Origin: a virus | Lineage: Duplodnaviria > Heunggongvirae > Uroviricota > Caudoviricetes | Strand: one strand, 5' to 3' | Length of the DNA stretch: 4,991 nt | Virus record (IMG/VR): IMGVR_UViG_2706794678_000008 | Shown: piece after piece, positions 3 through 4,991 of the stretch | How positions within the stretch are numbered: position 1 is the stretch's first letter | Layout: every line of letters starts with the position of its first letter | Notes under the pieces: model-generated | The model's input: the letters and a program-made list of their open reading frames with translations, nothing else | Database searches by the model: none | What the model was told of the DNA's origin: nothing | Made by a program: the position numbers and the translations under genes

Positions 3-2748
3 TCAGAAACGAACGCATCATCAAGCGCCAGTAGCGCAGCTTCCTCGGCGACGGCGGCTGCAAATTCTGCGAAGGCGGCCAAAACGTCCGAGACGAACGC
101 CAGGTCTTCTGAAACGGCAGCGGGACAGAGTGCCTCAGCTGCGGCAGGCTCAAAAACAGCGGCTGCGTCGTCTGCCAGCGCCGCGTCAACAAGTGCCGGG
201 CAGGCCTCAGCCAGTGCCACCGCCGCCGGAAAATCGGCAGAAAGCGCCGCATCGTCTGCTTCAACAGCCACAACGAAGGCTGGCGAAGCCACTGAACAGG
301 CCAGCGCAGCAGCGAGGTCTGCTTCCGCAGCGAAGACATCCGAAACGAACGCGAAAGCGTCGGAAACAAGCGCAGAATCCTCAAAAACGGCTGCCGCATC
401 GTCAGCCAGTTCGGCGGCGTCATCGGCATCATCGGCGTCTGCTTCAAAAGATGAGGCGACCAGACAAGCGTCAGCAGCGAAGAGCAGCGCCACGACGGCA
501 TCCACGAAGGCGACAGAGGCTGCTGGCAGTGCGACGGCGGNNNNNNNNNNNNNNNNNNNNNNNNNNNNNNNNNNNNNNNNNNNNNNNNNNNNNNNNNNNN
601 NNNNNNNNNNNNNNNNNNNNNNNNNNNNNNNNNNNNNNNNNNNNNNNNNNNNNNNNNNNNNNNNNNNNNNNNNNNNNNNNNNNNNNNNNNNNNNNNNNNN
701 NNNNNNNNNNNNNNNNNNNNNNNNNNNNNNNNNNNNNNNNNNNNNNNNNNNNNNNNNNNNNNNNNNNNNNNNNNNNNNNNNNNNNNNNNNNNNNNNNNNN
801 NNNNNNNNNNNNNNNNNNNNCGGCGTCATCGGCATCATCGGCGTCTGCTTCAAAAGATGAGGCGACCAGACAGGCGTCAGCAGCGAAGGGCAGCGCCACG
901 ACGGCATCCACGAAGGCGACAGAGGCTGCTGGTAGTGCGACGGCAGCAGCTCAGAGCAAAAGTACGGCGGAATCTGCAGCAACGCGCGCTGAGACAGCGG
1001 CAAAACGGGCAGAGGATATTGCATCCGCCGTGGCGCTTGAGGATGCGAGCACGACGAAAAAGGGGATAGTACAGCTCAGTAGTGCGACTAACAGCACTTC
1101 CGAGTCACTGGCGGCAACACCAAAAGCCGTTAAGGCCGCGTATGACCTGGCTAACGGGAAATACACCGCACAGGATGCAACGACAGCACAGAAAGGGATA
1201 ATCCAGCTAAGCAGCGCGACCAACAGCACGTCTGAAACGCTGGCGGCAACGCCAAAGGCAGTAAAAGCAGCCAATGACAATGCTGAGAAACGTCTGCAGA
1301 AAGATCAGAACGGTGCGGATATCCCTGGCAAAGACACCTTTACGAAAAATATTGGTGCCTGCCGTGCCTTCGGTGGGTCAGTAAGCACAACAACAGGAAA
1401 CTGGACGACTGCACAGTTTATCGAGTGGCTGGATTCTCAGGGAGCATTTAACCATCCATACTGGATGTGCAAGGGTTCCTGGTCTTATGGCAATAATAAA
1501 ATCATTACTGATACTGGCTGCGGTAATATTCATCTCGCCGGAGCTGTCATTGAAGTAATGGGGATAAAGTCAGCGATGACGATCCGCATTACCACTCCGA
1601 CCACATCCAGCGGTGGCGGAACAACCAACGCCCAGTTTACCTATATTAATCACGGAACAGATTATTCACCTGGCTGGCGAAGGGACTATAACTCCAGAAA
1701 TAAGCCAACGGCATCAGAGATCGGGGCGCTACCGTCAGGTGGAACAGCAGTATCATCAGTTAATCTGGCTTCAAAAGGTCGGGTAGCCGCGCTGACAGAC
1801 AATACGCAGGGGGCAGCAGGTCTTGAGTTATACGAGGTGTATAACAACGGATATCCAACAGCGTATGGAAATATCATTCACCTGAAAGGGATGACAGCCG
1901 TTGGCGAAGGTGAGTTACTCATCGGCTGGAGTGGTACAAGCGGTGCTCATGCTCCGGCATTTATTCGTTCACGACGGGATACGACCGACGCAAACTGGTC
2001 GCCGTGGGCGCAGCTTTACACCTCGGCTCATCCTCCTGCAGAGTTTTATCCAGTCGGTGCACCAATCCCGTGGCCATCAGATACCGTTCCGTCTGGTTAT
2101 GCCCTGATGCAGGGGCAGACTTTTGACAAATCTGCTTACCCGAAACTTGCAGCCGCTTATCCGTCAGGCGTGATCCCTGATATGCGTGGCTGGACGATTA
2201 AGGGCAAGCCCGCCAGTGGTCGTGCCGTATTGTCTCAGGAACAGGATGGCATTAAATCGCACACCCACAGCGCCAGCGCATCCAGTACGGATTTGGGGAC
2301 GAAAACCACATCGTCGTTTGATTACGGCACTAAATCCACGAATAACACCGGGGCGCATACGCACAGTCTGAGCGGCTCTACAAGTTCAGCTGGGGCCCAC
2401 CAACATAGTCAGACTGGGCCCAGAACGAATAGCGGGAGTCAACCTACTGGAATGTTTCCGGCAGGGAGTACTCAAGTTAGCGGGACTAATCAGGTTGGTA
2501 TCAGTGGCTCATTAACCAGTGGCACCTCCCAATGGGTAGGTAAATCATCTTCAGAAGGAAACCATACACACTCACTGTCCGGCACAGCAGCATCTGCGGG
2601 TGCACACGCGCATACTGTCGGTATTGGTGCTCATACGCACTCTGTTGCGATTGGTTCACATGGACACACCATCACCGTTAACGCTGCTGGTAACGCGGAA
2701 AACACCGTCAAAAACATCGCATTTAACTATATTGTGAGGCTCGCATAA
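3..2748 (+). CDS. stf: Side tail fiber protein (lambda Stf-like), 5'-partial (gene begins upstream of window); reading frame interrupted by assembly gap 541-820
   Basis: Frame 3 is open without stops from position 3 to 540 and encodes Ala/Ser/Thr-rich repeats ([13 protein letters not shown]..., [21 protein letters not shown]...). After the gap the same protein continues in frame 1 (821-2748): the fiber motif [26 protein letters not shown] twice, a globular middle region, then a His-x-His-rich tip ending ...[31 protein letters not shown], stop TAA 2746-2748. The frame-1 Arg-rich translation before the gap in the ORF track (MPQLRQ...) is out of frame; the frame shift across the gap reflects an arbitrary gap length. 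Confidence 0.9.
415..944. repeat. Direct repeat flanking the gap: 415-538 and 821-944 (124 bp, 3 mismatches), coding the [21 protein letters not shown](S/G)[18 protein letters not shown] shaft repeat
   Basis: Direct comparison of the sequence on either side of the N run; the copies are offset by 406 bp (not a multiple of 3), so the true gap length and repeat copy number are unresolved. Confidence 0.85.
541..820. other. Assembly gap (280 N) inside the repetitive tail-fiber shaft coding region
   Basis: Uninterrupted run of n from 541 to 820, flanked on both sides by the same 124-bp sequence (415-538 and 821-944). Confidence 0.97.
1063..1272 (+). repeat. Two copies of a 26-aa phage tail-fiber motif G-I-[VI][23 protein letters not shown] (1063-1140 and 1195-1272), period 132 bp
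   Basis: Protein-level repeat with largely synonymous nucleotide divergence between copies; this motif is recalled from P2 gpH, lambda Stf and T4 fiber proteins. Confidence 0.8.
2361..2572 (+). other. Hypervariable block A of the fiber tip (encodes ...[64 protein letters not shown]...)
   Basis: Region where unit A and unit B lose nucleotide similarity; bounded by conserved His-x-His-containing flanks. Confidence 0.75.
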
Positions 2749-2750
2749 TG
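2736..2750 (+). promoter_or_regulatory. Shine-Dalgarno (GAGG) plus overlapping stop/start TAATG; translational coupling of stf to the downstream ORF
   Basis: GAGG at 2736-2739, 8 nt upstream of ATG 2748; TAA 2746-2748 shares one nucleotide with ATG 2748-2750. Confidence 0.6.
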
Positions 2751-3800
2751 GCATTCAGAATGAGTGAACAAGCACGGACCATAAAAATTTATAACCTGCT
2801 GGCCGGAACTAATGAATTTATTGGTGAAGGTGACGCATATATTCCGCCTCATACAGGTCTGCCTGCAAACAGTACCGATATTGCACCGCCAGATATTCCG
2901 GCTGGTTTCGTGGCTGTTTTCAACAGTGATGAGTCATCGTGGCATCTCGTTGAAGATCATCGGGGTAAAACGGTTTATGACGTGGCTTCCGGCGACGCGT
3001 TATTTATTTCTGAACTCGGTCCGTTACCGGAAAATGTTACCTGGTTATCGCCGGAAGGGGAGTTTCAGAAGTGGAACGGCACAGCCTGGGTGAAGGATAC
3101 GGAAGCAGAAAAACTGTTCCGGATCCGGGAGGCGGAAGAAACAAAAAACAACCTGATGCAGGTAGCCAGTGAGCATATTGCGCCGCTTCAGGATGCTGCA
3201 GATCTGGAAATTGCAACGGCTTATCCGTCAGGCGTGATCCCTGATATGCGTGGCTGGACGATTAAGGGCAAACCTGCCAGTGGTCGGGCCGTATTGTCTC
3301 AGGAACAGGACGGCATTAAATCGCATACCCACAGCGCCAGCGCATCCAGTACGGATTTGGGGACGAAAACCACATCGTCGTTTGATTACGGCACTAAATC
3401 CACGAATAACACTGGTGCGCATACCCATAGTTTAAGTGGCAGCACGAATGCAGCTGGTAATCACAGCCATAGAGATGGCCGTCGATTTAACCCCAGTGTT
3501 TTTAAAGATACTTATCAATATGGTTATACAAGCTCAGGTCAAAATACCTGGGGTGTACAAGGCTCAGTAGGTATGTCTACGGGGTGGTTAGCGAATACCA
3601 GTATAGATGGTAATCATAGCCATTCACTGTCCGGCACAGCAGCATCTGCAGGTGCACACGCGCATACTGTCGGTATTGGTGCTCATACGCACTCCGTTGC
3701 GATTGGTTCACATGGACACACCATCACCGTTAACGCTGCTGGTAACGCGGAAAACACCGTCAAAAACATCGCATTTAACTATATTGTGAGGCTCGCATAA
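2748..3800 (+). CDS. Chimeric ORF: tail fiber assembly protein N-terminal domain (about aa 1-157) fused in frame to a duplicated side-tail-fiber C-terminal tip (about aa 158-350)
   Basis: ATG 2748-2750 overlaps the stf stop (TAATG) with GAGG at 2736-2739. The N-terminal 157 aa ([44 protein letters not shown]...) are near-identical to the downstream tfa. From 3219 the ORF continues into [18 protein letters not shown]...[11 protein letters not shown], matching the C-terminus of the upstream fiber except for the hypervariable block. Stop TAA 3798-3800. Whether the fusion is a functional product or a by-product of the duplication is unknown. Confidence 0.7.
3425..3624 (+). other. Hypervariable block B of the duplicated fiber tip (encodes ...[60 protein letters not shown]...)
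   Basis: Counterpart of block A in unit B; 12 bp shorter, more AT-rich and richer in aromatic residues; the same His-x-His positions are retained at both edges. Confidence 0.75.
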
Positions 3801-3802
3801 TG
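3788..3802 (+). promoter_or_regulatory. Shine-Dalgarno (GAGG) plus overlapping stop/start TAATG; translational coupling into tfa
   Basis: Identical arrangement to 2736-2750, carried within the duplicated unit: GAGG 3788-3791, TAA 3798-3800, ATG 3800-3802. Confidence 0.6.
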
Positions 3803-4381
3803 GCATTCAGAATGAGTGAACAAGCACGGACCATAAAAATTTATAACCTGCTGGCCGGAACTAATGAATTTATTGGTGAAGGTGACGCATATATTCCGCC
3901 TCATACAGGTCTGCCTGCAAACAGTACCGATATTGCACCGCCAGATATTCCGGCTGGTTTCGTGGCTGTTTTCAACAGTGATGAGTCATCGTGGCATCTC
4001 GTTGAAGATCATCGGGGTAAAACGGTTTATGACGTGGCTTCCGGCGACGCGTTATTTATTTCTGAACTCGGCTCATTACCGGAAAATGTCACCTGGTTAT
4101 CCCCGGAAGGGGAGTTTCAGAAGTGGAACGGCACAGCCTGGGTGAAAGATGCAGAAGCAGAAAAACTGTTCCGGATCCGGGAGGCGGAAGAAACAAAAAA
4201 CAGCCTGATGCAGGTAGCCAGTGAGCATATAGCGCCGCTTCAGGATGCTGTGGATCTGGAGATCGCAACGGAGAAAGAAACCTTGTTGCTGGAAGCTTGG
4301 AAAAAGTATCGGGTGTTGCTGAACCGTGTTGATACATCAACTGCACCGGATATTGAATGGCCAGTAGCACCTATAGGGTAA
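3800..4381 (+). CDS. tfa: Tail fiber assembly protein (lambda Tfa family), full length, 193 aa
   Basis: ATG 3800-3802 overlaps the preceding stop (TAATG) with GAGG at 3788-3791. The protein [44 protein letters not shown]...[34 protein letters not shown] is recalled as closely similar to lambda Tfa and E. coli prophage Tfa proteins. Stop TAA 4379-4381. Confidence 0.92.
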
Positions 4382-4991
4382 ATTCGTAATGATTACCTAA
4401 ATACGTTATTCTTTTGTTAAAAAAGTGATTTTGCTATAGGTAGGGAGTATGTTCTTGGATTAAGAATAAAAAATCGCCATGAAAGAGCTTCATGGCGAGT
4501 ACATAAACGTACAAAATGTGATGAAAGTAGAGTGGCGTAAGCCACTATATTAAGATATGACAATAGCGAAGAAAAGTAAATAACATTTTATGGACGTTTA
4601 ATTGTTAATTATAAAAACTAGAGTGCCCGATATTGTTTATCTTGCTTTAAAATAATGTACTCAAACCAAATTTTTGAGCTAAAAGCTCAAATAATATAAA
4701 TGCAATAATAATGTTTAATAAGACAATTAGCTTGCTTTGTATTTTCATTTCGGAATACTGTTAAGTAACTTTGATGACCCTAACAATAGATCGGAATTTT
4801 CTTAGAGTCAATGGTCACTGTTTTTGCTTGCAAAGCAAATGTTTTGGTGGTTATAAGTCGTCTTAATATAGTCACGCATGCAACTTGTTCCATGCGGAGA
4901 TTAAAGATTGGAATATAACGCGAAGATGGAATTAAATTACATTTGCAATAATTAATTTATTATTACTCAATAATTACCGATATTATTATTG
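4382..4991. other. AT-rich non-coding region downstream of tfa; no ORF of 60 aa or more on either strand
   Basis: Abrupt GC drop immediately after the tfa stop; only very short ORFs (35 aa or fewer) without convincing ribosome-binding sites; several small hairpins (e.g. ttgagct-aaa-agctcaa at 4674-4690). Confidence 0.6.
4462..4497 (-). terminator. Putative rho-independent terminator for a leftward (minus-strand) transcript
   Basis: Perfect 9-bp stem cgccatgaa (4475-4483) / ttcatggcg (4489-4497) with 5-nt loop. On the minus strand the hairpin is followed by AUUUUUUAUU (complement of 4465-4474). On the plus strand the run is an A-tract upstream of the stem, so it is weaker as a tfa terminator, though bidirectional action is possible. 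Confidence 0.45.

Follow-up and report, generated by a model that had tools for sequence, protein, structure and literature searches.

Genes and direct repeat of the fibre locus

We analyzed a stretch of 4,991 nucleotides (nt) from a virus of the class Caudoviricetes (IMG/VR record IMGVR_UViG_2706794678_000008), referred to here as the window, which carries a side tail fibre locus with two fibre tips in direct orientation. Judged by their sequence, its genes are an ordinary lambda-type pair of stf and tfa, belonging to the already known Stf/gp37-tip and Tfa families. The side tail fibre gene stf occupies positions 1-2748 of the plus strand (its 5' end lies beyond the window and its stop codon is at 2746-2748) and encodes a shaft, Phage_fiber_2 repeats, a Collar domain (2056-2199) and a first tip, named tip A. 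Pfam profiles PF03406 (1.2e-37) and PF07484 (3.6e-12) match this gene, and its organization is that of lambda Stf and T4 gp37, in which a His-x-His needle with the expected C-terminal end comes after Phage_fiber_2 repeats and a collar. Tip A matches the receptor-binding tip of T4 gp37 (PDB 2XGF) with an E value of 2.9e-84, and the second tip, tip B, matches the same structure with an E value of 1.2e-60. Both tips have gp37-like His-x-His strands and end in the same way as 2XGF at the C terminus. In a protein homology search, tip B proved to be common in fibres of Escherichia coli and Shigella sonnei at 98% identity.

Downstream of stf, two further open reading frames (ORFs) follow on the plus strand, each overlapping the preceding stop codon and keeping the same GAGG...ATG start context. 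The first (2748-3800) is a chimera of 350 amino acids (aa), in which Tfa residues 1-157 are fused in frame to a collar-truncated tip B. Only positions 1-97 of the 131 of the Caudo_TAP profile are matched by this ORF in Pfam, and the conserved C-terminal segment of Tfa is gone. The second (3800-4381) is a complete tfa gene of 193 aa, which covers Caudo_TAP (PF02413) over positions 1-130 of 131 (E 4.2e-44) and is thus full-length; its product is identical to WP_052941040.1 of S. sonnei. In T4 gp37, the collar spans residues 811-860 and the domain that binds the receptor covers 907-996 (PMC12724248). The complete collar expected of an autonomous second tip was not found, as no Collar domain was detected by Pfam in the ORF at 2748-3800. 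The alignment of tip B to 2XGF starts at chain residue 65, which is gp37 residue 849, and tip B is without 38 of the 50 N-terminal collar residues.

The direct repeat that underlies this organization consists of copy 1 (2155-3218) and copy 2 (3219-4270). The initial annotation had described a unit of about 1.05 kb, comprising the fibre tip and the first part of tfa, that is present twice in direct orientation with conserved flanks and differing central blocks, and the alignment of the two copies bears this description out. The 5' arms (2155-2360 and 3219-3424, offset 1064) differ at 7 of 206 positions (96.6% identity), and in copy 1 this arm contains the end of the collar and the first His-x-His strands. 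The 3' arms (2572-3218 and 3624-4270, offset 1052) differ at 16 of 647 positions (97.5% identity). Between them lie the central variable blocks A (2361-2571) and B (3425-3623), which share 60% DNA identity in a forced global alignment and whose middle stretch of approximately 50 codons is unalignable. Block A aligns to residues ~134-190 of the 2XGF chain, within gp37 907-996, and both blocks fall inside the gp37-type receptor-binding region, in the distal part of each tip. The 3' arms include an exact block of 376 nt (named R; 2644-3019 = 3696-4071, 100% identity), which holds the 3' end of stf and tfa codons 1-91. The 5' halves of tfa had been called near-identical; this is correct for their first 272 nt, which are the same in both copies, whereas 14 differences fall in the remaining 199 nt (3020-3218 vs 4072-4270). 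Judged from these alignments, a repeat of about 1 kb is far beyond chance. The joint between the copies (3218|3219) is a codon boundary, at which Tfa residue 157 (...DLEIAT) runs into the fibre sequence AYPSGV....

Two S. sonnei loci and the joint between the copies

Comparison with sister S. sonnei assemblies allowed the window to be decomposed base for base into two loci, named L and F, and this decomposition settles most of the question of its origin without the use of reads. Locus L is a single-copy arrangement of stf, tip A, tfa, an AT-rich end and IS1, found on a 3,148-nt contig of GCA_001249355.1 (L006), which is the only contig on which WP_052941040.1 is on record. Locus F has the order J, lom, stf with tip B, tfa (194 aa) and sitDCBA, and is represented by two S. 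sonnei drafts (L011 and L010). The window agrees with L006 without a single mismatch over 1014-3019 (2006 nt) and again over 3696-4991 (1296 nt), and all differences between them are confined to 3020-3695. This interval of the plus strand, which comprises F tfa codons 92-157, the joint, the collar end of F stf, tip B and the start of the 3' arm, is derived from F: it has no mismatches to L011 over 3020-3218 or over 3219-3695. After circular permutation (3219-4071, then 3020-3218), the tract gives one contiguous alignment at 99.0-99.3% identity in 60 complete E. coli genomes. On this evidence the window reads as an L locus with a 676-nt piece of F wrapped head-to-tail between two copies of R.

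The two copies of R are both L-type at all six single-nucleotide polymorphisms (SNPs) that distinguish L from F (2742, 2772, 2795, 2834, 2864 and 2906). Because of this, the switch from L to F is confined to 2907-3019 (113 nt) and that from F to L to 3696-3793 (98 nt). These two intervals are the longest L/F-identical stretches beside the heterology, so that the breakpoints coincide with blocks identical between the paralogues, a feature of misjoins. With regard to the identity of the copies, a feature of tandem duplications, the 5' arm is L-type in copy 1 and F-type in copy 2, and as assembled one copy is L-type and the other F-type; they would be identical if the duplication sits in the F locus. 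The initial annotation had held that two tip variants lying at separate prophage loci would speak against its reading; they do lie so in the sister S. sonnei assemblies, to which this comparison applies, and not to the source isolate.

The head-to-tail joint (3211-3219, plus strand) reads TTGCAACGG in the window. F tfa has TTGCAACGG|AGG at this place, F stf has TTGCAGCGG|CTT, and the window has TTGCAACGG|CTT, so both sides are F-type. The two parent sequences share three exact bases, CGG (3217-3219), and eight of nine positions overall, a similarity that only 146 of the 955,008 pairs of F tfa and F stf positions reach (1.5e-4). This argues against contig ends having been abutted arbitrarily, and the microhomology of the joint is above chance, as is expected of short-homology duplication; the sequence points to some process that senses sequence similarity. 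A hypothetical joint made of L-type sequences would read GATCGCAACG|GCTTATCC, with only one exact base and six of nine positions in common. As the similarity falls in this way, the join was most likely made on F-type DNA. In its sequence, the joint has the marks of a simple tandem duplication of 1,052 bp through short homology, and the 30-mer CTGGAAATTGCAACGGCTTATCCGTCAGGC can serve as a search string for the structure. A candidate site for a Pin-type invertase next to the joint ('TTATCC...GATAT', 3221-3247) was rejected: its spacing is wrong, its dyad symmetry is poor, and an invertase gene is absent.

A search of other genomes for the same tandem arrangement, which the initial annotation had suggested, was carried out in E. 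coli, phage, contig and protein collections and returned no instance. Here, the DNA collections are without complete Shigella genomes, and the protein collection includes S. sonnei assemblies. Neither the 5,426 complete E. coli genomes nor the 50,697 phage records contain a place that matches a 200-nt probe across the joint over at least 80% of its length, and a 23-nt degenerate pattern of the joint had no match in GTDB species representatives, IMG/VR or JGI metagenomes. An exact protein look-up had no record of the 350-aa protein. Searches of 5.8 billion clusters with the whole ORF, and with a 135-aa fragment that has the joint at its centre, retrieved no joint-spanning protein. Taken singly, the halves are single-copy stf-tfa loci of a very common kind, and the loci were single-copy in every one of the 5,426 E. 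coli genomes (all complete) that were searched. Recurrence in independent genomes or lineages, as a maintained multi-cassette locus would show, was thus not observed in these collections.

Three apparent matches to the arrangement were rejected upon examination, namely a normal stfR-tfaR locus (H31), a truncated tip fused to tfa by deletion in the opposite order (P0001), and a fusion of tfa to gpW (P0163). In a further protein, present on 480 contigs, the N terminus of a terminase is fused to tip B (P0016). Such deletion fusions (P0001, P0016 and P0163) are frequent in the fibre loci of cryptic prophages, and none of these has the order Tfa N-terminus to tip. A partial tail fibre of E. coli on a 1,150-nt contig (P0136) has a 21-residue in-frame tandem duplication at the collar position where copy 2 begins; this part of the collar may tend to slip or to be hard to assemble. 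In E. coli UC4224 and relatives (H124-H126), a fibre locus contains an IS3 element and has two annotated tail fibre assembly genes under one match, which would be a tfa duplication of another type.

Origin of the arrangement

On balance, we consider it probable that the window represents a one-off, out-of-register splice of the S. sonnei lambdoid stf-tfa loci L and F, made either in a cell or by a scaffolder. In a first step, illegitimate recombination or template switching would have produced the head-to-tail join at CGG within TTGCAnCGG on F-type DNA. In a second step, L-to-F and F-to-L swaps would have taken place inside L/F-identical stretches, through either cellular homologous recombination or template switching, or through a short-read scaffolder together with a gap filler. 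Experiments have measured exchange between lambda and defective prophages within stf-tfa across short stretches of identity (PMC3945230). The joint itself is, in our estimate, fairly probably real. It is a possibility, though a somewhat unlikely one, that a real joint lies in the F locus, where tip B would be followed by tip B, and was threaded into L by the scaffold. That the arrangement is physical as assembled, with tip A and then tip B behind one shaft, appears unlikely; it would need one microhomology switch plus two homologous switches, a detour through F resembling microhomology-mediated break-induced replication (MMBIR), or several successive rare events. These two versions have the same assembly-graph topology and would differ only in the copy number of the SNPs in R and in read-pair links.

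Several points weigh against a splice of this kind. As assembled, the structure needs the three template switches or succession of rare events just mentioned, and both the joint and the threading through the 376-nt repeat are known solely from the assembled sequence. A simple Campbell-type integration of an excised F circle is excluded by the R copies, because it predicts reciprocal L/F hybrid copies and both are L-type. Moreover, an unresolved scaffold gap with near-identical flanks lies in the same gene, and the pipeline that probably made the scaffold is, in the words of its authors, greedy and prone to false joins (PMC5320598).

The gap in question, which the initial annotation did not mention, is a run of 280 N inside stf (541-820). 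Between its flanks (415-540 and 821-946) there are 4 mismatches in 126 positions (97% identity), and five complete genomes each have a single place to which both flanks map. Their offset of 406 is not a multiple of three, and the reading frame differs across the gap. It represents either overlapping contig ends of paralogous fibre genes or a real unresolved shaft repeat of approximately 400 nt. One of the drafts with locus F (L010) has three N gaps in J-lom-stf (829-1140, 3095-3688 and 4751-5000), one of them at the same shaft site as the gap of the window; the J-lom-stf region breaks recurrently in these assemblies. Judging from the accession series and the variable length of the N gaps, the scaffold was probably made by a Velvet/SSPACE/GapFiller pipeline, whose authors report on 299 public S. 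sonnei assemblies and describe greedy tools, false joins and 4-10 misassemblies per genome (PMC5320598).

It is also possible, if somewhat unlikely, that the whole structure is an artefact; the isolate would then have normal L and F loci, and the joint and the duplication would stem from the preparation of the library, from assembly or scaffolding, or from the filling of gaps. The arrangement is a singleton, each of its components has 100% identity to a separate locus in sister assemblies, and the switches between the paralogues fall exactly within L/F-identical blocks. An L-type R in both copies is what would result from gap filling anchored in L-unique flanks, the N gap with near-identical flanks is only 1.6 kb upstream, and false joins are what the authors of the pipeline warn of (PMC5320598). 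The joint is harder to reconcile with such an origin. A de Bruijn contig requires reads that cross it, and a microhomology of eight of nine would be expected by chance at a rate of only ~1.5e-4. On the tfa side, the joint lies off any boundary of the assembly graph, with SNPs 7 nt upstream and 3 nt downstream. By default, SSPACE and GapFiller merge sequences on exact overlaps of 10-15 nt, for which three exact bases are too short. Furthermore, short-read assemblers usually collapse repeats rather than expand them.

A very unlikely alternative is that the L locus was duplicated in tandem in situ and that its inner parts then underwent gene conversion from F. The L-type outer flanks on both sides agree with it, and the end of homology at the joint would be a natural stopping point for conversion tracts. 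However, the L-type microhomology of one exact base and six of nine positions argues against a join made on L, and the two tracts would each have to reach the joint exactly and leave no difference from F in 676 nt.

Even less probable is the maintained two-cassette locus that the initial annotation had proposed, with two alternative tips stored behind one fibre shaft and the reserve tip swapped in by recombination between direct repeats. Tip B does lie between homology arms of 206 and 647 nt, the predicted deletion product is an in-frame shaft-tip-B fibre, and the variable blocks are in the receptor-binding region of a gp37-type tip. Storage behind one shaft does not agree with the gene structure, in which tip A alone continues the shaft and tip B forms the C-terminal part of the Tfa(1-157) fusion. 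The arrangement is a singleton, conserved nowhere among the collections searched, and an N gap interrupts the same gene. Its copies are base for base two separate loci rather than diverged duplicates; they show no divergence from the resident loci, and the structure would therefore be very recent. Any swap would be one-way and destroy the reserve, and the longer arm favours the loss of tip B. In addition, no recombinase gene and no dedicated recombination site are present in the window. The contrast that had been drawn with inverted-repeat cassettes was well founded: the two gp37-type tips are in direct orientation, no inverted repeat was found within 2000-4400 that could serve as a crossover site, and no ORF in the window encodes a serine invertase. 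From its sequence, then, the window has nothing able to drive switching. Nor does the window point to a diversity-generating retroelement: none of the listed ORFs is a candidate for a reverse transcriptase, and indels rather than adenine substitutions set the blocks apart.

Finally, the idea that the Tfa-tip B chimera is a piggy-back adhesin, whose Tfa N-domain docks on tip A and presents tip B much as T2-type gp38 does on gp37, is scarcely credible, since its collar is truncated, the conserved C-terminal segment of Tfa is lost, an in-frame fusion arises by chance in one of three cases and no homologous architecture turned up among the 5.8 billion protein clusters, even though the fusion has the GAGG-ATG start context of tfa and one source (PMC9608196, citing North 2019 and Hendrix & Duda 1992) describes the Tfa N-domain as the fibre-binding part and Tfa as a component that mature virions of Mu and Ur-lambda retain.

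Taken as a splice of L and F, the window is best filed, on the sequence comparisons, as a private rearrangement or an assembly chimera of known genes and not as a two-tip host-range device. Genome scans will flag chimeras of this type, in which gapped short-read scaffolds combine multi-copy prophage genes.

Were the structure physical, both Tfa and the Stf that bears tip A would remain intact and translationally coupled, and the middle ORF would be an orphan chimera of the Tfa N-terminus and tip B without most of the collar. The conserved C-terminal segment of Tfa is described as driving trimerisation in the same source (PMC9608196, citing North et al. 2019). The structure would be unstable, because RecA or Red recombination between the arms would collapse it. 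Recombination in the 3' arms, which contain the 376-nt perfect block, would restore a tip-A locus as the main outcome; recombination in the 5' arms, whose longest perfect block is 86 nt, would less often yield the in-frame fibre with tip B. If the scaffold is right, a population would segregate fibres with tip A and with tip B, which amounts to a one-way host-range switch without an invertase. A physical arrangement would also provide a rare snapshot of tips moving between prophages, by an illegitimate join and then homologous resolution, the raw material of mosaic tail fibres. On this reading, which we regard as doubtful, the scaffold is right and would represent a caught-in-the-act intermediate of tip transfer between two resident prophages, with an out-of-register insertion that is later resolved by an in-register deletion. 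Even then, no new mechanism or system would be involved, and the interest would be that of a curiosity.

Known systems and other features of the window

The locus shares the genes, their order and the overlapping stop and start codons (TAATG) with the lambda-type stf-tfa operons of Ur-lambda, Rac (stfR-tfaR) and Qin (stfQ-tfaQ). Unlike these, it has an extra 1,052 nt that consist of a shaft-less second tip and a partial tfa. In relatives of the locus, J-lom-stf-tfa is located at the prophage end, and some of them have pinQ or pinR just downstream of tfa. Both tips are close sequence homologs of the T4 gp37 tip (PDB 2XGF) and differ from each other within the receptor-binding part; in contrast to T4, copy 2 starts at the equivalent of residue 849, and the chaperone is Tfa rather than gp38/gp57A. 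The invertible segments of Mu (G), P1 (C) and e14 (P), with the invertases Gin, Cin and Pin, likewise have two alternative modules of tip and tfa and one constant fibre part. In the window, however, the repeats are direct, an invertase is absent, the second module is fused to tfa instead of facing it, and an exchange would be an irreversible deletion.

With regard to processes, short-homology duplication or template switching of the MMBIR type resembles the window in its head-to-tail joint, with three exact bases and eight of nine overall, and in the further switches within identical blocks, but as assembled the copies stem from two loci, an outcome that a simple duplication would not produce. 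False duplications and paralogue chimeras in short-read scaffolds have in common with the window the multi-copy prophage sequence, the switches in identical blocks, the nearby N gap and the singleton status; they differ in that the joint of the window contains no N and has a non-random microhomology. Purely as an analogy, silent-cassette systems such as Neisseria pilE/pilS also have an expressed gene and, behind it, a truncated variant copy that is non-autonomous and lies between regions of homology, whereas the window has a single cassette that is not conserved, would lose it by deletion instead of repeated conversion, and gives no evidence of selection.

Besides these features, the window ends in a non-coding, AT-rich stretch at the prophage end (4382-4991; 29.5% GC) that is without a recombinase gene. 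No convincing ORF is present in it, and its minus strand has a strong terminator-like hairpin (4498-4474) with TTTTTT after it. In L006 (2927-3148 of that contig), the sequence runs into the end of an IS1 copy approximately 160 nt past the end of the window, and no recombinase gene is called on this contig either. Within the shaft, a direct repeat of 107 nt (1040-1146 and 1172-1278; 74% identity, spacing 132) corresponds to two Phage_fiber_2 repeats and is an ordinary feature of such genes. The Rfam family IS009 (RF02111), a candidate small RNA of E. coli, matches in full length within the tfa coding sequence (4143-4341; 218.6 bits). A second match to this family (3098-3219; 127.8 bits) stops at model position 129, exactly at the duplication joint.

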